Assembly (NCBI GenBank): GCA_965235115.1
Contig: OZ249436.1
Location: 9,736,001-9,800,000, forward strand
Length of the DNA stretch: 64,000 bases
Direction of reading: 5' to 3'
From: Laetmonice hystrix
Lineage: Eukaryota
The translations under genes were made by a program, and so were the position numbers. Below are positions 51,801 to 64,000 of this stretch, piece after piece (the first letter of the stretch is position 1; the number at the start of each line of letters is the position of its first letter). Under the pieces are notes generated by a model. It was not told where the DNA came from and did no database searches. It saw only the letters and a program-made list of their open reading frames with translations.

Positions 51801-53051
51801 TACCTCACTAATAAATGATCAATACGGCAGTCATTGAGTTTTCCTGCAGTCTATGACTCACATCTACGAATACAGGTTTGAAAAACGTAACCCTTCTATA
51901 ATTTGGATCTATGGCACATAGCGGCCACGTTAGCACGTCTGCCACTTGAGTAGCACAGCAAAGGCTGGAGTGGGTAACTGCTGCGGTACCACAGAGGTTT
52001 GGAGCCAGACGTACTGTCAATGGAGCATGCCGGACTGCCTGCTCCAAAAGAGTTCCAAGCATGCAATGAGACTGCCCACTGCATGTGTAGACTATTTCAG
52101 TCACTTACAAACTCCAAATTGGAACGCTATGAGCGAGCTGGCGTCCATCGGGCCTTGACAGGCAGAGCACAGGGTCAGCTTTAAAATACTGAGTGCAGCT
52201 CAATCTGGTCTTGATCACATGACTGCTACAACAAAAGTGAGAGTAGTTTGCGATTCCGATTTACTATTGGTTTGACCTGGTCTTATGGCATATCTCCTGT
52301 AAATGATCATACTCTGGCTAGAAACTCTCAGAAAAGGCAAAAGCACTTAAAGTAAAGTTAGAATTATAAAGAATTCCGAAGTAATTATGAAATAATGTTT
52401 TTTTCCTTTATCATTTTCAGGTAATAACCAGGCCCATTCAAAACCCGATATCTTTTAGCTTAATAATGGAAAGCTGGATCATTTCTCATCACATAGCTCT
52501 GACGTTCTAACAAGTGATTCTTTCCAAGATCCTAAAATAGCGCCACGGAGACGCCTCGACTGAAACAACTTTTATCTGGGCCCTGATTCTGAACGCCATT
52601 ACTCTCCATGATGTGCCTGATTATTTCCTTTAATTAGCAAGGATATCATATTATATTCTTATTCAGGAGACAGTAATTGAGTTTGGGACACGTGCTGGTG
52701 ACGCTCGGTATTTCAGTACCATCGCCGCCATCACTACAGTTATTGCCGCTCTGAAGGCCACACGTGATTTATCATTTACAGTTACTACACGTGGCAACCC
52801 TTGCCAATATATAATATTGTAATCAATCAAATTAACTTTATTCACGTTAACACGAAACAGACTTATTTTTGATGCCACGTGCAGGTAACAGTTGTACTAA
52901 AGTGAAGCTTCTCATGCTGGATGTAGAGAAATCCATGTTGCTCCAGATAAACGCACGTTAGTAACTTACTAATGGCAAGCTCACATGATGGTGCCCCATC
53001 CAGAAATGGCTTTCTACGATATAAAGGTTTAAAAAAAGGTTAGATACTTAC

Positions 53052-56000
53052 TGTCTGTTTGGCATGAGCAACAGCTTCCTCGAGTCCATGAACTTTGCTG
53101 CCCACTATGTACACTCCATGAGACCACACAGAACACTCCTCATGAACCCAGATTTCGGGAGGAAGATCATCGCTCACCGATTCCCAGCGCGGTGATGCCA
53201 GCAAACTGCCCCCTGAATTTTCACGAGATTTCCGCCGTCGCCTGCCCACTGGCGTCTCCTCGACTGACGAGCTGAGTTTTCGTCGTCGGTGCCGTTTTTC
53301 TGAGGACGGTGTGTCTGTCTGTGGTGTTTGATGTGTGGACGTGGAGGGTTGAGGGTCAACTGCTGTACTGGAGGGTTTGGTATTGGAAGGAGAGGGCTGT
53401 ACTGGAGCATAGTTCTCCGGATAGTATGGACCAAACAGGTCTCCCAGAGTCTGGTGGTTGCTGCCCTTGCCACAGAAGGCACACAGCCATGGGACAGAGT
53501 CAGATAGAACAAATGAGGTGGCAGATATTGCGGGGGGCTTCTCTTTGTGTATCTCACCGCCCGCACCACTTTTCTTCTTCTTACTCAATTTTTCACTCTC
53601 CAAATTGTCTAGTGTATTAACCACCTCCAGGGAAGTTGGGTTTTCCTTGGGTCCTGTAAGTCGGACAAATGGTCCCATTATTACCTGAGACCCTTTTTCC
53701 CCTTTCTTTTTCTTACTGCTCAGTTGGCAGGCTTCACCACCTTTTTTTAACATAGCCTTTAACGACTCCTCTTCCTCTTTGTAGTCTATTATCCCTTCCC
53801 CTTGTCCTTTTCGTCGTTTTCGCCGTTTCATTGGTACTTTGTTTTTACTACCAAAAGGGCGACCTCTCTTCTTCTTTCCCGTTGGCGTTGACCCAGGAGT
53901 GAGTTCGCTAGCTGAGCTGGAAGAAGGCACTTGCTGCAGTTGGTTGGTGCCAGACTCGGGTGTAACTTGCTCAGTTTTTACTGGAGGACTCACAGACGTG
54001 GGTGTAGTAACTGTAGTCGGCACTGCTGGCCCTTCTGCAGCTTCCTGTTTCACAGGTGTTTCCTGTTTGACTGTGGATGGCAATGGTACAACAGCAGGAC
54101 TGCGTGATGGTGAGGTGCCCCTCCCCTTGGACAGGCCTGATCGAGGGGAGTGGCCCCCTCGAGTGCCCCTACCCCGTCCACCACGACCTTTACCTAGCCG
54201 TACCGGAGGCCGTACGAGTTCGGCCTTTACAGGAGGAGGAAGCACCAGAAGGTCATCTTCTGGTCTCCTCAACTTGTTCCGTTTTGCCGGCAATATGTAA
54301 TCCTCATCCTCACTGTCATTGGACTCAATTTCGATTGGGATATCTACAAAGTTTGGCATGTGTGTCTGGCGTCGCTTCCGCATGCCCTTTCCCATACCTG
54401 GTCCCCCTTGGACAGGTTCTTCATCACACCGACTCAACTCAGGCTTATCTACGTCATCAAAAGAGGTACAAAGGTTCTTGCGCGACAGCTTTGGGCACTG
54501 TGGCATGGCAGCCTCAGACCGAGGCTTAACGTCACTTGAGCAATCATCAGTACGGCTGTGATTTATGGCTGCTGGTGGACCTGTCTCCCCGACAGCGTTG
54601 TCACGAACAGTTTGCTGAGCACTCTCCTTACTGGGAACGGATAAACACACAGGATTCAGCCTACCCTCTCCTTTCACGGTATCTCGACTCTCAATTTTAC
54701 ACTTGGGTTTGAACTTTGATGGTAACACGTCTTGTACTGGTACATCGTCATGTCTGTCGTTCACTCTCACTTTCAGGTCCATCACTGGCGCAGGACGTGC
54801 CTGGACCTTTTGAACGTTTGTGCTGTTAGTCAGTAGACTACTAGGTTTGACTATTTCTGATGTAGAAGTATTTTGAGTACAATGTGTTGCTGACTTTATG
54901 ACAGTCTTATTTTTTACGACCTCTTCCTTCTTTGGCACCTTAAGACCTTCACTGGACCTTGTTTCACTGCATGAGTTCGTCAAGTCAATGGATTTCATGT
55001 CTTTCGGTGGAGACTGATCCTGCTCACCCTTACCAGCAGTCGTATTCTGCCCAGTACATGGTACAACTCGCAGTGGTGACCTTATTTCAGCAGCTGCAAA
55101 CTTTACCCCTGACTTCAGATTTGAAGCGATCATCTCCAACCTGGATCCCTTACCTTTTGTCTTAACCTTTGTATTTAAACCAAGTGTAGCAACAACATTT
55201 GCCGACTTGTCCACTGAAGCACCAACAACTGAGGAGGTCAATTCCACGACAGGCTTGAGGCTTGTTTGAGCAAGAACAGAGTCCAACTTTCCCCGACTTA
55301 CAGATGATATGCTATGTGGCTTGATATCAGTGACTACATTAATTTTCTTCACCTCAGTTGCAGGCAAAGCATTAGTGTTGCCCTCATCTTTCACTACAGA
55401 CTTGCTATTGGACACAGTGGTACTCCCAATAGGGTTGGCCTTCAGTTCCATGTCGATTGGATTCAGTTTGACTGTACAAGTTGAACTACATACGTCTTTT
55501 TCTAAAGTTTTTAGACTGTCATCTTTCTTGGACCCTGACCTAATTTGAGATTTCACGTCTGGGCAGGATCTGAGCCCAACATTACCATCCTCTATGGTTG
55601 GCTGCGCTGATTTCACCTTGAGTTCTAGTGTCCGTTTAGTAACAGAACTTTTCTCACCTACTAGTGGCTCCTTACACTTTTGAGGTTCCTTACACTTTTC
55701 AGGATTAACCAAGTCTCTGCTGTTTTCTTTTCTTTTCAGATTGGCCTCTGGTTTCTCGAAACTGGACTCTGTTAATTTATCTTTAACATCTCTAATACCG
55801 GGCTTTATAACTGAAACGGGTAAGAGCCCCTTTGAAAGAGGCTTTACTAGCGAAACTTCTTTCTTTTTGGGGGCTGGATTAGTCTTTAATTCTTGTTTTG
55901 TATGTAAAACCTTTTTCCCTACAACAGGCCCATTGCTATGGATTTGTCTTTTTTCCTCAACTCTGTCTGTCTGGGTATTCACAGGGACAACCTCTACATT

Positions 56001-59000
56001 TTCTTTTGCACTCATGATGATCGCATTCTGGTTTTTCAAACTAGATACTTCATTTTTTGGATTCTCCTTGGTCTCTTTTAGATCCTGTTTACTCTCAAGA
56101 ATCATGGAAGGCTTCTTCATCTCCATATCTGACTTGCTGTTTTCTCGATTTCTGTCTTGTCTCACTCTCGTAGGACTTGTTGGAAGCTTTTCACAGGAAT
56201 TCTTTGCGTCAGAATTTTCCAGGGTTTTCTTCTTATCATCTAACTGACCATCTGGAGGTTGAGCACTGTCTTTTGTTCTGTCACACACCTTTAATGTCGT
56301 TTCCTTCGAGTTGACTGCTGGTAATATAGTCTCCACCTTAGAGTTTTTTACAGTTCTTTCGCTACTCTCCTTTGCTTCATCCTTTGTAAACCCTCTTGTA
56401 TTTCTAACAGAGGTGTCCTCAGATTTGTTGCCAGTGGTTTTTAATAGAGGAATAGTTGGAGTTACACGGTCAGCCACACTGACCTCACAAGAGTTTTCTG
56501 GCTTTTGTTCAGATTCATTTTCAACTTGTTTTGTTATTTTACTTTGTTCCTCCTTCGTCTCATCAGCAGATTTCTTGTCTACAAGGGTTTTGTCTGATTT
56601 CTCCAAGCCTTGTGACTGATGAGACTGATCACTGTCTTTTGGACTTTTTTGACAATCTTTCTCTTGCAACTTTTCAGATGACCCTGCATCTGCAACTGCA
56701 GATGAAGTTTTCTTTTTTGTTGGTTTTACAATACTTTTTGGAGATAAAACTTTCTCACACGTTTTAGTATCATTGGCCACTTTAACATTACCATCTACCT
56801 GTTTTTCTACACTTTTGTCAGCCTTTGGCTTTTGAGATTTGTTATCCCTGTTCAAAGGTTTTGGAAATGGTCTAACGACATGCCGTATGGGATTCTTTGA
56901 TTCAGCAGGTTTTTCACAAGATTTTGATTCATGTTTGATAACATCTGCATTTCTTTGTAGGCTCGGAGCGTCAGGCCTATGAACTAAAGGTTTTTCACTT
57001 TCATCTGCTTTTGGCTTGTTGTTTGTTTCAGACTTTTCACTTTCACCACTGAGTTTGTCTTGAGTAACTTCAGGTTTTTCATCAACACTTTTGACGTCAG
57101 GCGTTTTTGCCTTTGAATCAGGGGTTGTTGTGTCTGAAGTTACTTTGTTGGGCTGCTTTCTCTTTTTCCTCACTTTTGACTCTAAACTGACAACTTCCTT
57201 AGTTTCTGAATGGTGATGATTCGAGGAACTCACACCATTCACAACTGGAGTGGCAGACTTTTGGAGATCCTCTGAGGAATGCCGCTTAACTTGAACATTC
57301 TCTGATTTAAGATTTGACCTGCCTAATCTTACATCCTCACGAAGATGTTCCATCTTGACCACAGGATCATTTGTCAATTTTATATCAAATTTATCATTCA
57401 CATTAACTCGGACCATGATGTTATTGTTGCAGTTTTTGGTTTTCACATCAACTTTTGTGCTGGCTTTCCCAGGCGACTTAGGCTCCGGCTTTGCCTTGTC
57501 TCCTGAATCACTTTTGCCCGGACTGCGTGCCGGACTTCTTGCTGGACTGCTGCCCCGTCGCCGCCGCTTTGGTTCGGGTTCATCAGGAACCTCAGCACTT
57601 GTCCGGCCTATGCTCTCTTTGTTTTCGCTTTCCTCTCGAGCTTTGAGCTTTACATTTGCTTTAGATTTAGGCAATTTAGCCTTTGGTGATTCTGATTTTT
57701 GATTGTTTGACCCTGGATTAACCGCCCCCTTTGATGACCTATCATCAACAGTCTTTGATTCAGCACTGGTTTCAGCAACCGGTTTGGCTTTCGTGTCAGC
57801 CTGGTTGCTGGTTAACGGTTCTGTGTCACTACCACAGTGCTTACCATCTTCACAATGCTGGTTGGAACCTTCTGGTTCGGACTTGATGTCAGGGGGCGCT
57901 TCACCGTTTTTTGACGGTTCACCATTTTTAGAATTGGTATCACCTGCACTTGGCAAGCAGGCATCATTAACAACACTTTTAGGATCTATAACTTGACTTT
58001 CGGGTAGCATGACAAGTTTCTGCAGAGACTGAAGTGGATTTGATGAGTGACTATCCCTGTCAGGCTCTGAGCAATGTCGGTGTTGCTGCTGCTGCTGTTG
58101 CTGCTGCTGATGTTGTGATCCAGCCATGCTGTAGGTGCTGCCAGTTGATGTCCCACTATTGTCCATGTACATGGACGAACTCGGAGGTCCTTGGCTGGCC
58201 TGTGACTGCGGGCCTGTGGAGAAACCAGACGGACTGGAGTGACTTGAAGACGAGTTCATATAGTTGTTGCTGGGAGAGAAATGTCCAGAAGGACCTTGAT
58301 TTGTAGGTGAACGCATGGCAGATGCCATACTCGCTGGTGAATGTTGACCTGCCGTGCCCATTGGTGGCAAAGGAGAGGGCGTCGGATGCATATTATGCAT
58401 CGGTGACCTCATGGGGCCTTGGTTACAGTTCATTGGGGATTGCATCGGTTGCATCCCTGGAGACCTCATCCCAGCCAAGCTCGGGGACGCCACAGAGTGT
58501 GCTGCTGGAGATCTCTCTGGTCCCGGTGCTGGACTTCTCATCGGCCCTGGGCTTGTGCTGGGCATGCTTGGGTTGCTGTGAACAGAGGCTGGACTTCTTA
58601 CTTGAAGTGGGCTCAGCGGTGATGCTTGACTCTGAGGAGGCATCTGATTGGTGTTGGGGTACATGAATTGCTGCCCTGGACCCATCTGTCCTTGGCCCAT
58701 AGGACCTTGACCCATTTGATTTTGTGGATGGCCCATCTGACCTTGTGTGTGTCCTGGAGGGTACTGACTGGAGAACTGGCTAGGGTTGTTCGGCATCATG
58801 TGCGATGAATGTTGGGCCATTTGGTTCATCTGGTTTGGTACTTGCTGCTGGTACTTGTTCATGTGGCCCTGCGGTCCAGCCATTCCAACTGGACCATTCG
58901 GGGTGTAGGCACTGGACGCCATCTGAAGGATGTTGTCAGCGACCTGTTGGGGGGTCTGTTGTTGAGACTGCTGCATCTGCTGCGTCCTCATATGATGGTG

Positions 59001-59283
59001 AAGTGCGCTTGGACTTGGGTTAGATTGTGGCGGCATACTGTTGGAATACATGCCACCTCCACCAGGCGGCGCTCCTAGGTTAGCGCTGCTGTAGGGCGGA
59101 TTGGGTTGTCCTGGGAAGCCGCCGGGCCCACCAGGTCCTGGTCCAGGACCATGGCTGTACTGGGGGTGACCATAGTTTGGGTGTGACGGCATTCCCCCTG
59201 GGTGTTGTGGCATTTGCCCTGACTGCGACATGTATGGATTGTTGCCATAGGGGTGCATCTGTTGTTGTTGCTGCTGTTGTTGC

Positions 59284-59321
<38 letters not shown>

Positions 59322-59399
59322 CCACATCTGACCTTGTCCTTGGCCGTAGTATCCTTGACCTTGGTTCTGGTATGGTCCCATTGGAGACATGTTTCCCCC
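53052..59399 (-). CDS. RAI1/TCF20-like: RAI1/TCF20-family transcriptional regulator, giant exon (polyQ and Q/P/M-rich N-terminus, long disordered middle, AT-hook, N-terminal half of ePHD)
   Basis: Open frame of 2116 codons. Acceptor tatttgcag|GGG at 59399, first in-exon ATG at 59390, donor ACA|gtaagt at 53051. AT-hook KKRGRPFGSKNK. ePHD motifs CAFCGK...LGDLFGPYY and EIWVHEECSVWSHGVY..GSKVHGLEEA. Confidence 0.92.
59259..59321 (-). repeat. CAG/CAA trinucleotide repeat encoding 21 Gln
   Basis: 63 nt of mixed CAG/CAA codons inside the giant exon. Confidence 0.9.
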
Positions 59400-60619
59400 C
59401 TGCAAATACACAAATATGACACAAAATAAGAATCACGTATAGCTTTAGGGAGCACTGAAAATTGATCTAGTGAGAATAACAGTCCTAGAACCTCTAAGGC
59501 TCATGCCCATTGAATGCCAAAGATTATTTGCATATTTTTTTATCGATAGCCTTGCAATCACACTTCTTTTCAATCCCTATGAGAGAATCAATACCTTATG
59601 AATATTCAACTCAATTCTTTTAAATTATTTGGTCGGTTACACAAAACCCCATTATGTCATATCCCAGTGGAGCTTGGTGGGAAGAGCGTTGAGAAAGGGC
59701 TCTTTGCCTTTTGTTTAAGCTTCAGACCCAGATATTTTCATTAACATTCCTTTACTCTGATGACAACCAAGGCACGGATAATGGCCTGCTACAGGCATTC
59801 CAAGCATTCAACACAATTGATTAAAAGCGATCATATTAATCAAGCCTTGAGTTTATAGGAATTCTCTGCTCCTGGGGTCTTCAACTTCATGGAAACTGAA
59901 TCCTGATCGAAACCTTTCATGTATTTTAAGCATATTTGAAAAACGACCAAGAGGAACTGCTAGTTGGTATCTTTACACTGGAACCTGTTCACCATCACTT
60001 CTTTTGGGATCGATCACGTCTTACGGCCAAGACTTAATTTATGCATATTGCTTCAGAAATATCCTTCCTGCACTCGACTGCGTGTGGGCGCGTGTCTGTG
60101 TGGATAAATTGCCAATTAGCAAACAAGAATGAGTACGCCTGCTCATGGCAAGCTCATAACTTTTTTTCCTGTCGATAATTAACATGCATGGCACACAGAG
60201 TAATAAGGGAGTCAATGTGGTCAGCACTGGGCCAACCAAAGGGCCGGTGCTGATCCGCCGCCACATTAGGGGCACTAGTAGAGGCTCTGGGGTGCATGGT
60301 AATGGGACCAAATGGGCACTATACCATTACACTGCCCCACTGCCAATCACACACAAACTAACAGGGCCTTCCAACAAACCTGCACAATAGAGTGCTGTAA
60401 TGGATTAAAAGCAGGGCTACACAGTGTCCAAATAATAATGGTGTCGAGCCAGTGGGTGGTGTGTAATCTGTGAGCTGCCTGCTGACAGCAGCTAGCAGGG
60501 TACTTTGATAGTGATGGATTGGTTCAAGGCCCACAATCTGGCCTGCCAGTGAGAACCGACACTGATCAGGTCGACACTCGTCCTACCAGCCGCCGCCGTC
60601 ACCAGCCAACCCGCAATAC

Positions 60620-61355
60620 TATCGTACCCCAAGTTTCACATTGGGCTACTCTTGCCCAAAACAATGGACAGACAACCTATGTCAGAGACAATTCTTATGT
60701 TTAGTTGTAAATTGTATACGTTTGATTTACACCCAGAAAGATTAGATGTTCATTATAGACATTTACCAACCATGTTGTGGTGCATTAAGGATTTAACCAC
60801 CGTTCTCAGATGTTCAGTTTGTATTCATTGTTTGCTACCAGCATCTTAGGTTTACAAACAATGTAATCTCTTGGGTGACATATGTTCTCCATTGATGGTT
60901 TTCCCCAGCTTTCGTTTGGGAGGTTGTTTTATTAATGAAGGCAGTACAGTCATAGGGGCAGAGTCGCTCATCACAGGGAACCCGTAATACAGGTGTTTTC
61001 TCACCTATTGTTTCCCACCTCTGTGAAGCAGCTCACTAGTGCCAGGATGTCGGCCTCAGTAATCACTGCTCATTAGACTCTCTGCCAGTGCCAACTTACT
61101 TGTCTTTAACAACAATATACAATCCCCAAAGTGGCCTGCCCTGTGATGGTTTAGCCAATCGGGAGCCAGCATTTTTAGGTTGTATATCATTGGTCAGTTT
61201 GACAATGGTTTTCTCTATATATACTCATGTTATAACTTTGTACAAAAACTTGGAAAGTGAACTGGAATAAACTTCATAATAGTTGACCAGCTCAACCTCG
61301 TCCTTCTGCTGTACACGCAGTCTTCTGGAATGTCGTAGGAACCCTCCGTACGATA
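60620..61355 (+). repeat. 5' LTR (736 bp)
   Basis: Near-identical to 62740-63474. Contains CCAAT (61155), TATATATA (61216) and AATAAA (61266). Confidence 0.93.
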
Positions 61356-61449
61356 ATTGGTGGAGAACCCGGGTGGTTAGCTCTTTTTAGCTGCTAACAG
61401 TCCCTATATGTATTAGCTCCCAGAAGACACAGCCTGCCTGAAGACAACC

Positions 61450-62589
61450 ATGGACGGATTTCTCCCACAACCTGTTCTGGCATTTTTACATGATGCCAAG
61501 AATCTTGGAGTGTCGCTAAGCTGGTCCATCTCCAGCTCACAGGATAAGAAGTCCATAGTTCTGGAGTGGAATACCCATCCAGATACAGATAAGTCCATTT
61601 GTGTGTCATCGACCTCTGGTCACAAATCTCCAAGCAGACGTCGCCGTGATGCTCAGAGATATCAGGCCTGGACCAAGAAGAAGCAGGAGACCAGCCAGTC
61701 AGCACCCAGTAGCCGAGAGGAGAAGAACAAGGGACCAAACAAGGCAGTCCACATTCCTGAGGGAACCAAGTCGACAGTTGCACGGTCAAAACGTCACCAG
61801 AGAAAACCTGGACGAACGTCAACAGCAGGACTCATCCCATACCACCAGGAACATCGCCTCCCTCCTCCAGTGAGTGCCGTTTCGCTCGACCATGGACCAT
61901 CCAGGTCAAACGCATCAACCCAAACAGACAGGCCAGTGACCATCTCTCGTGAGCTGCAAACTGCCCCTCCCACTGTCCAGTCTAAAGGTGTGCAAGCATT
62001 TTGCTCTGTGCCATCCGACACCAAGAGTTGTCAGAGTGAGGCAGTGAGCAGATCTGACTCTGCTACTCAGACTTGGACAATCAGGGGTGACCAGAGTACC
62101 CAGACTGTGGGAAATGGCCCCCAGAAGACAAAGCAATTGTTGGATCCCATGTGTCTAGGATCTAGTGAGCTGGAGTTCCCAGATCAACACTTCCTTGATT
62201 CCCTGGTCAGAAATAGAAGTGATCCACGGTCACTTCCCATACTGCATCCAGCTGGACAGAGAAGTATACCCGTGTGTGATAAGAGCCTCACAAGGAAATT
62301 GTCTTATAGACAAGAGATCTATGAGAGCCATGTGTTACTCTCTGAACCCATTGATTACGATATCACACATATCAGAGAATGTTTTGGATTTCTTGAACGT
62401 GACGAGGCATTTTATCTTCTCACAAAGTATAGAGGGCTGCATTACCTTATACCAGATGAAGGACGTTACTCAGACTTTGAACAGTTGGACCGTGCTGGAT
62501 CACTCTGTGTGACACTTTTAATTTATGATTATAGAAGACGGAGGTATATCCAACCAGAACCTCGATATAATAACCTTGTTCAAGTTTAA
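61450..62589 (+). CDS. 379-aa protein of unknown function carried by the LTR element
   Basis: Intact ORF filling most of the 1384-bp internal region, with a good Kozak context (aaccATGG). No recognisable RT, integrase, protease or CCHC knuckle motif. Confidence 0.8.
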   Translation: MDGFLPQPVLAFLHDAKNLGVSLSWSISSSQDKKSIVLEWNTHPDTDKSICVSSTSGHKSPSRRRRDAQRYQAWTKKKQETSQSAPSSREEKNKGPNKAVHIPEGTKSTVARSKRHQRKPGRTSTAGLIPYHQEHRLPPPVSAVSLDHGPSRSNASTQTDRPVTISRELQTAPPTVQSKGVQAFCSVPSDTKSCQSEAVSRSDSATQTWTIRGDQSTQTVGNGPQKTKQLLDPMCLGSSELEFPDQHFLDSLVRNRSDPRSLPILHPAGQRSIPVCDKSLTRKLSYRQEIYESHVLLSEPIDYDITHIRECFGFLERDEAFYLLTKYRGLHYLIPDEGRYSDFEQLDRAGSLCVTLLIYDYRRRRYIQPEPRYNNLVQV

Positions 62590-62739
62590 CATGACTGTCA
62601 GGAGAGGACAATCACATCTGTATCCTGACATTTGGTATTTTTCATAGCAGATATCTTCTACATGATATCCAGTCATGAACAATCATTTTTATTTTTCTTT
62701 GAGATTGGATGCTCCAATCTCAGTTGAGCGAGGGGGATA

Positions 62740-63474
62740 TATCGTACCCCAAGTTTCACATTGGGCTACTCTTGCCCAAAACAATGGACAGACAACCTAT
62801 GTCAGAGACAATTCTTATGTTTAGTTGTAAATTGTATACGTTTGATTTACACCCAGAAAGATTAGATGTTCATTATAGACATTTACCAACCATGTTGTGG
62901 TGCATTAAGGATTTAACCACCGTTCTCAGATGTTCAGTTTGTATTCATTGTTTGCTACCAGCATCTTAGGTTTACAAACAATGTAATCTCTTGGGTGACA
63001 TATGTTCTCCATTGATGGTTTTCCCCAGCTTTCGTTTGGGAGGTTGTTTTATTAATGAAGGCAGTACAGTCATAGGGGCAGAGTCGCTCATCACAGGGAA
63101 CCCGTAATACAGGTGTTTTCTCACCTATTGTTTCCCACCTCTGTGAAGCAGCTCACTAGTGCCAGGATGTCGGCCTCAGTAATCACTGCTCATTAGACTC
63201 TCTGCCAGTGCCAACTTACTTGTCTTTAACAACAATATACAATCCCCAAAGTGGCCTGCCCTGTGATGGTTTAGCCAATCGGGAGCCAGCATTTTTAGGT
63301 TGTATATCATTGGTCAGTTTGACAATGGTTTTCTCTATATATACTCATGTTATAACTTTGTACAAAAACTTGGAAAGTGAACTGGAATAAACTTCATATA
63401 GTTGACCAGCTCAACCTCGTCCTTCTGCTGTACACGCAGTCTTCTGGAATGTCGTAGGAACCTTCCGTACGATA
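62740..63474 (+). repeat. 3' LTR (735 bp)
   Basis: By eye it differs from the 5' LTR by one 1-nt indel (cataatag vs catatag) and one substitution (accctcc vs accttcc). Confidence 0.93.
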
Positions 63475-64000
63475 ATACCACCAGTACATCCACCACCACT
63501 CCGGGTCCACGGAGAAACCCGAGAGAAACTGCTCATTAACCTCACCCCTCTCCTTTTTCTAAATCTACAGACTTTAGATGCTGGGGCAGATATGTCGTAG
63601 ACTGGTAGTGTCTATTTCATGAGGTCCACTTTTTTAAGGAACAGAGAAGCGTCGCAATGCAGCAACTAATTTTGATGCATGTGCATAATATCACACCTCA
63701 CCCCGTCTGGTCACACTAACAATCTTTTATTCCACTTAATTAATTGTGTCTGACTGAGTGGCTACATAAAATTATGTCTCAGAAATTAGTTGCAACCACT
63801 GGAGAGAGACCGAGGGGAGAACCAGTAAATTAACAAAACTGAGATTCACCGGTTCACTTACGCCAATGATACGTAGTCAAATGTAGGCTAGGAAATGCGC
63901 TGTCACAATAATATATAAGCTCTAGCATGTCAACAGCCATCTTCGGTTAACTAGGACGACTACATCATTTCAGATACTGCATTTCAGATTTCAGCCGCAA

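Follow-up and report, generated by a model that had tools for sequence, protein, structure and literature searches.

A conserved array of LC8-type motifs in the sole long gene of a multicopy LTR element of Laetmonice hystrix

What a protein encoded by a mobile element does with a row of six LC8-type motifs is the question raised by a locus in the analysed window, a stretch of 64,000 nt of the Laetmonice hystrix genome. The plus-strand ORF at 61450–62589 encodes a 379-aa protein, designated P0001. A sequence-only reading of this DNA had pointed out six regularly spaced TQT-like motifs in a disordered segment of a "retroelement protein", and had proposed that the protein dimerises on the dynein light chain LC8 or engages dynein transport. 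The six heptamers (NASTQTD, SRELQTA, SKGVQAF, TKSCQSE, DSATQTW, and DQSTQTV) were all present, and their anchor Gln residues lay where that reading had placed them, at residues 158, 170, 182, 195, 207, and 218, with a spacing of 12, 12, 13, 12, and 11. The anchor Gln codons were located at 61921, 61957, 61993, 62032, 62068, and 62101. As a whole, the array of six Gln-anchored LC8-type motifs covered 61906–62109 (+), with 8-mers at 61906, 61942, 61978, 62017, 62053, and 62086 and linkers of 3–5 residues.

The predicted disorder and the Ser/Thr/Pro richness of the segment were also borne out. AlphaFold2 prediction built on a 16-row alignment showed pLDDT below 50 and no secondary structure over residues 83–238, and Ser, Thr, and Pro made up 38% of residues 148–225. 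A true TQT was found in three of the six motifs, the other three being variants. When the whole protein, residues 83–238, and residues 148–225 were shuffled 20,000 times each, three exact TQT within 70 residues occurred 1, 0, and 3 times, respectively; this was the only shuffle test without hindsight. Six relaxed motifs occurred 0 to 5 times per 20,000 shuffles, with patterns written after the motifs had been seen. For comparison, a neighbouring 2130-aa low-complexity host exon gave one match per pattern. No tandem repeat was detected in the DNA under the array, and DNA-level tandem duplication was rejected as its origin. When seven positional criteria were coded from the text of PMC6607443, each window motif agreed with 5 or 6 of the 7 and none with all 7; a polar residue at −4 was present in six of six motifs, a hydrophobic residue at +2 in three, and a small residue at −3 in two. 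The flanks regarded as favourable were a polar −4, a large −3, and a non-hydrophobic +2, with neither an aromatic residue at −2 nor Pro inside the motif.

Analysis of the flanking DNA showed that P0001 was the sole long gene between the LTRs of a 2.86-kb element. The 5′ LTR (60620–61355, +) consisted of 736 nt with short inverted termini, and the 3′ LTR (62740–63474, +) consisted of 735 nt; 734 of 735 aligned bases were identical, with one gap. A 4-bp target-site duplication preceded the 5′ LTR (60616–60619), and the identical four bases recurred after the 3′ LTR (63475–63478). A 17-nt primer-binding site (61358–61374, +) was complementary to the 3′ end of host tRNA-Ala, and a purine-rich polypurine tract (62726–62739, +) abutted the 3′ LTR. 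The hallmarks of Ty3/gypsy-type LTR elements, namely paired LTRs, a tRNA primer site, a polypurine tract, and a short target duplication, were therefore all present. The sequence complementary to the primer site ended 62 genomic sites, and a scan of 2 of these loci gave 3 genes, called as tRNA-Ala. Most of the 62 matches lay in dense clusters at G000:C6:11.20–11.26 Mb and C20:0.35 Mb.

A minus-strand open exon of 2130 codons was located at 53040–59432. Its product was Gln/Pro-rich and then Lys/Ser-rich, with a Cys/His motif at the end; it had no Pfam match, and we take it to resemble TCF20/RAI1-type proteins. The element lay 1188 nt upstream of this exon on the opposite strand. Because this position is past the likely splice acceptor, the element probably sits in an intron.

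A DNA search of the 627-Mb genome found at least 63 matches to the element, at least 24 of them near full length with 94–100% identity; these counts are lower bounds, with 40 of 279 candidates scored. A protein search of the genome gave 64 matches with identity down to 36%; four diverged families (36–100% identity) were present in the genome. The family start codon was found at 55 loci, three of them in one tandem array, and 51 of the 55 were intact, with an open frame of 360 aa or more. In the tandem array (L020–L022, G000:C21:17969834–17979797), the three ORF copies were arranged head-to-tail about 2080 nt apart. The intact ORFs comprised 49 distinct sequences, in families of 26, 7, 10, and 6. 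LTR pairs were mostly 99–100% identical across copies, and 39 of 52 related loci had a 4-bp target duplication in a simple scan. The families are young and recently mobile. Insertion was biased: of the 39 target duplications, 23 began with G and 27 ended with C. LTR bodies differed between families, while families A and B had one LTR in common.

Three protein searches of the genome for a cellular source gene returned element loci or fragments only (57 loci examined; a few small fragments were left out). At L065 (518–5755; G000:C11:9397200–9407100), the LTR and primer site of the window element surrounded an internal region without the ORF, and a fragment of this interior matched F5/8 type C (fucolectin-like) domains (E 1.8e-9). 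Judged from the sequence, this is likely an LTR-mediated capture of host gene fragments.

A search for the junction of LTR end and primer site led to a deleted Gypsy copy and from there to full-length gag-pol-env elements. The partner at G000:C10 (L073, L079, and L080) encoded protease, RT, RNase H, and integrase domains, and its Env matched Baculo_F at 1e-12. The partner LTR was 92.5% identical to that of the window element over the first 623 nt, the primer site was common to both, and a stretch nearly identical to the polypurine tract preceded the partner's 3′ LTR. No protein similarity to P0001 was found at the partner loci, and profile A1 had no match there. P0001 also had no Pfam match. 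The earlier term "retroelement protein" was right, although P0001 is not Gag, Pol, or Env. The partner env was present in the genome as one full and one rearranged copy; the two families with the partner-like LTR comprised 33 distinct intact ORF copies. The common LTR start, primer site, and polypurine tract point to mobilisation by the partner, and the window element is in all likelihood a non-autonomous satellite of an errantivirus-type Gypsy (the term as used in the available text of PMC13524379), copied and inserted by its enzymes. This partner was identified for the LTR of families A and B. The window element itself carried a single unrelated ORF in place of the Gag, Pol, and Env that an errantivirus encodes.

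Other Gypsy copies of the genome had features of their own. In the gag-pol-env copies L073, L068, and L070, pol lay in the gag frame with a single stop codon between them, which suggests that pol is expressed by read-through in several copies. A second multicopy deleted derivative, from another Gypsy family, was found at L072 (2771–3379; G000:C10:6036500–6044500) and about 15 similar places; it had the same primer type and a 203-aa ORF of its own, in which neither a Pfam match nor LC8-type motifs were found. At L063 and L064 (G000:C5:27962000–27978000), tandem Gypsy copies contained the start of the 203-aa ORF fused in frame to the RNase H end and the whole integrase (847 aa), and the primer-site region was repeated several times.

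Comparison of the 49 distinct intact ORFs showed that the anchor Gln was kept in all 49 at motifs 1–4 and in 42 at motifs 5–6. The exceptions were all 7 distinct ORFs of family B, in which the 3′ half was replaced from about residue 181. Since family B ORFs are young and intact without motifs 5 and 6, six sites are not required. Among six aligned ENA homologs, five kept all six motifs, and P0007 kept five, lacking motif 3. The flank of motif 5 differed in families C and D and in five of the six ENA proteins, most having Pro at −2.

Synonymous sites between families were near saturation (whole-ORF dS 1.15–1.87), and the anchors nevertheless remained similar. Between L001 and L052, the anchors were 72% identical (dN 0.20), the spacers 21% (dN 0.72), and the linker 21% (dN 0.85). 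Between L043 and L052, a pair in which the window copy is not involved, dN was 0.08 at dS 2.28 in the anchors and 0.80 at dS 1.01 in the spacers. Over six between-lineage pairs, dN was 0.08–0.24 in the anchors and 0.31–0.80 in the spacers; motif conservation is overstated in such comparisons, as the window copy served to choose the motif positions and the motifs themselves support the alignment, an effect that pairs without L001 lessen and do not abolish, and the anchors amount to just 18 codons. The Gln codons at the anchors differed synonymously between families. Non-motif Gln residues were also well kept (Q72 in 9/9, Q31 in 8/9, and Q225 in 7/9). Loss of the motifs with conserved flanks would have spoken against the sequence-only reading; the opposite was found, the motifs being better conserved than the intervening residues across families. 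The motif array is under selection and is better conserved than its surroundings.

The register profile of 9 divergent proteins, with family B left out, showed Gln at position 0 in 53 of 54 instances, Thr at +1 in 43, Thr or Val at −1 in 43, and Ser, Asn, Asp, or Thr at −4 in 50; position −5 was the least conserved. This profile agrees with the positional rules for LC8 binders in the available part of PMC6607443.

The same profile bears on two other explanations of the Gln register, a phosphorylation cluster or self-assembling strands. The consensus of ATM/ATR-type kinases is SQ/TQ. Thr or Ser preceded Gln in 37 of the 54 instances, as a cluster of such sites would have it, and the array alternates strand-prone residues, as self-assembling strands would. 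However, Val, Ile, Leu, Ala, or Cys stood at −1 in 16 of the 54 with the Gln and the +1 Thr still kept, conservation at +1 (0.75) exceeded that at −1 (0.63), a polar residue was kept at −4 in 50 of the 54, and in the distant relative P0025 four of the five [TVI]QC matches were VQ-type anchors. We consider this pair of explanations very improbable.

Outside the array, P0001 was built of modules evolving at different rates. The N-terminal domain with its basic helix (residues 1–81; 61450–61692, +) had 54–77% identity and dN of 0.14–0.31 between families. It was followed by a basic, disordered, fast-evolving linker (residues 82–147; 61693–61890, +; pLDDT below 50) with 18–45% identity in the eight pairs tested. 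Beyond the array lay a helix and then a predicted ubiquitin-like (beta-grasp) domain (together residues 240–365; 62167–62544, +). The model of residues 230–379 had a mean pLDDT of 81.8, and a Foldseek search with it, on which the fold assignment rests, gave a best E of 8e-4 (USP15 UBL), a probability of 0.97–1.00 in all rows shown, and a target TM of 0.73–0.76 to ubiquitin, SUMO, and Rad60 SLD2 chains. Matches of this class were also obtained in other runs. The C-terminus of P0001 is thus predicted to have a beta-grasp, ubiquitin-like fold. None of the 16 aligned proteins ended in the C-terminal Gly-Gly by which a conjugatable modifier would be recognised. No family was assigned to the N- or C-terminal domain when P0001, five homologs, and the 13 rows of A3 were scanned against Pfam, and a profile search of PDB sequences found nothing up to E 10. 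ESM Atlas returned nothing for P0001 or P0003, and for P0023 only scores of 0.75.

Pairwise comparison of copies revealed that these modules have moved. L001 and L016 had identical ends with a diverged linker and diverged motifs 1–2; L040 and L043 had a common tail and different fronts; and family B shared its front with family A and not its tail (tails 21% identical). Modules of the ORF are exchanged. Neither this modularity, nor the predicted ubiquitin-like end, nor the probable satellite nature of the element had figured in the sequence-only reading.

A profile search of 1.84 billion representatives found 16 proteins at E up to 0.001, of which 8 were weak matches centred on the N-terminal domain. 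In a set of 5.8 billion, a profile search gave 9 proteins that had already been found, and one more (P0062) with distant rows. The distant relatives were 29–40% identical over the N-terminal domain, the only part in common, and P0019 and P0062, compared as profiles with A1, reached a probability of 98. Seven clusters were scored for motifs, with the 69-aa fragment P0021 left out. P0019, P0025, P0027, and P0029 contained 3–5 [TVI]Q[TC] in 80 residues (0–10 per 5000 shuffles), P0020 contained two (67 per 5000), P0031 one, and P0023 none; P0062 contained three (16 per 5000). Under a broader motif rule, P0025, P0027, and P0029 were not significant (96, 214, and 289 per 5000 shuffles). The VQ-type anchors of P0025 were 11–13 apart. 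P0019 and P0062 had chromodomain-like ends under the Pfam cut-off (E 0.001 and 0.043), and P0023 was from Mytilus coruscus by its source record.

The metagenome contig L083 (1077 nt) had this tRNA-Ala primer site too, about 100 nt ahead of the start codon of the relative. It was the one relative with DNA context, on a contig too short for paired LTRs. A search of metagenome contigs with A4 gave none, and none of 62 pattern matches in viral contigs was confirmed. Of the 3 metagenome loci obtained with P0020, two (L084 and L085) were dropped as phage-like chance matches. A search of sequencing runs listed no RNA run with the sequence, a result without weight in either direction. A match of the basic helix of P0025 (residues 27–53) to Cucumo_2B, the cucumovirus 2b RNA-silencing suppressor, was set aside as probably due to chance (E 0.11; 1 of 13 rows).

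With regard to the binding partner, the genome contained 4 matches to host LC8 genes, of which one was translated. The predicted complex of 4 LC8 chains and 2 copies of residues 196–227 scored 0.41 against 0.02 for the best control, which was rated as weak support; the runs shared at least 52% of contacts, the binding partner had pLDDT of at least 37, and no interface was given. Of 78 solved complexes, 51 attained the score mark, as did 2 of 108 mismatches, but just 5 of the 78 solved complexes and all 4 passing mismatches of 180 attained it at 0.60 or under. Peptides lie outside this calibration and, as LC8-peptide structures have already been solved, a pass may be memory. The complex prediction shifts the odds little, and conservation is the main evidence for LC8. 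In the available text of PMC6607443, binding failed for 12 of 19 peptides predicted from motifs, and many TQT peptides do not bind alone. The array is comparable in geometry with measured ones, as linkers have 3–4 residues in KANK1 and 4–5 in Nup159 according to the part of PMC12803091 at hand, and LC8 dimers bridge two parallel chains (PMC12057147, in part). Taken on its sequence, the array probably binds host LC8 and dimerises P0001.

The proposed alternative between dimerisation and dynein transport could be divided on this basis. Motif conservation and the arrays of relatives make dimerisation the likely, predicted outcome; the dynein branch found no support, and LC8 is now generally viewed as a dimerisation hub and not as a cargo adaptor (PMC6607443, available text). 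A link of the element ribonucleoprotein to dynein for transport would have a precedent in foamy virus Gag, which interacts with LC8 through a region needed for centrosome trafficking, but the accessible text of PMC3705263 maps this interaction to a coiled coil and not to a TQT array. Moreover, clients and dynein occupy the same LC8 grooves (PMC6607443, in part), and the partner's Gag and Pol contained no TQT. Transport on dynein is accordingly improbable.

Binding could also serve to titrate LC8, withdrawing it from silencing or repair complexes of the host. LC8 is essential for Drosophila PICTS and binds two TQT motifs in Panoramix (PMC7861614, in the text available), and dozens of gene copies with six sites each could act as a sponge. 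However, LC8 is described as broadly expressed and had the 4 genomic matches given above, and a sponge would need neither conserved spacing nor two flanking folded domains. We regard it as hardly likely.

The explanation that we propose is that LC8 dimers would zip two P0001 chains into a parallel, stiff ladder running from the conserved basic N-terminal domain to the swappable, predicted ubiquitin-like domain. The satellite would be copied and inserted by the partner Gypsy enzymes, and the dimer may be a nuclear accessory factor that keeps the LTR of the element expressed against host chromatin silencing. This last step is the least certain and is put forward tentatively, by analogy. It was chosen because the basic N-terminal helix resembles an import signal, because relatives have chromodomain-like or ubiquitin-like tails, and because the tail diverges and is exchanged fast while the N-terminus and the anchors are kept. 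It was also chosen for the analogy with VANC (PMC13547354, in part) and for the dimerisation of Drosophila PICTS by LC8 (PMC7861614, in part).

The main rival places the protein on the RNA side. The LC8-zipped dimer would be an adaptor whose basic N-terminus binds its own RNA in cis and whose tail attaches it to the Gag particle or integration complex of the helper, so that coding copies outcompete non-coding ones. Such a cis advantage would explain why the gene is kept under purifying selection and why the element outnumbers its partner, and it fits with the conservation of both primer site and N-terminal domain out to L083 while LTR bodies differ between families. It is at odds with the lack of similarity to Gag or nucleocapsid, with the tails of families A and B, which differ strongly although these families have one LTR and likely one helper, and with L065, where the same LTR with host gene fragments inside shows that having the ORF in cis is no strict requirement. 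We judge the RNA-side adaptor rather unlikely. The nuclear reading joined to the selected array, the LC8 ladder, and the satellite is the best explanation as a whole, and we lean towards it with modest confidence.

Beyond this species, the window element could be the first representative seen of a widespread class of invertebrate coding satellites, tRNA-Ala-primed one-gene parasites of env-carrying Gypsy, in which an LC8 ladder presents interchangeable ubiquitin- or chromodomain-like effectors against chromatin silencing. Such a system would be the animal equivalent of VANC in plants. We offer this as a speculative idea that is more doubtful than probable. If it is true, a hub protein of piRNA silencing has been turned to the transposon's side.

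A gene of its own under selection is unexpected in a non-autonomous element, and here it was seen across families with near-saturated silent sites. The design of the protein can be read from a fixed N-terminal domain, an LC8-type ladder, and an exchangeable tail, and it offers an N-terminal domain without a Pfam family. To our knowledge, the accessory proteins described from animal LTR retrotransposons are few. Among non-autonomous LTR derivatives, TRIM, LARD, the gag-only TR-GAG, and MaLR are either non-coding or keep gag. Like the window element, they have LTRs, a primer site, a polypurine tract, and a target duplication without pol; the window element differs from them in that its modular ORF is unrelated and maintained by purifying selection. 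The non-coding interior that characterises TRIM and LARD was not seen here, the ORF being intact in 51 of the 55 loci and under purifying selection.

VANC21 reportedly contains a ubiquitin-like domain. VANC of plant VANDAL elements is likewise a transposon accessory protein, a predicted oligomer that diversifies fast between families, as described in the available parts of PMC5735166 and PMC13547354. However, VANC belongs to a DNA transposon of plants, oligomerises by a coiled coil, and is MAIN-related; its likeness to P0001 is treated here as one of analogy. The non-insect "ancient" errantiviruses, env-carrying Ty3/gypsy elements, resemble the partner at G000:C10 in having gag, pol, and an F-type env, whereas the window element is without these three genes; the word "non-autonomous" is absent from the main text of PMC13524379 as far as it was available. 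Neither an LC8 array encoded by a transposon nor an element of this kind was found in the open-access literature searched, while Repbase or Dfam may hold an entry under a generic name and the supplements of PMC13524379 the lineage of the partner. The literature found on LC8 and transposons concerned the host silencing side only, and that on LC8 and a retrovirus concerned foamy Gag.

On that host side, Panoramix and PICTS/SFiNX also combine LC8-type motifs in a disordered protein with a transposon–host setting (PMC7861614 and PMC7919418, each in part). Panoramix is a host silencer with two motifs, whereas the P0001 motifs are on the transposon's side, and no sequence relation was seen. The closest likeness in motif organisation is to KANK1 L2, Nup159 (PMC12803091, in part), and ASCIZ (PMC10046861, in part), which likewise place several 8-residue motifs, Gln-anchored and uneven in quality, within a disordered region, with linkers of 3–5 residues and conserved anchors. 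Those proteins are cellular and their binding has been measured, whereas P0001 is encoded by a mobile element, has no coiled coil, and is a predicted client. Its natural variants with four, five, and six sites provide a test bed for how motif number and spacing relate to LC8 cooperativity.
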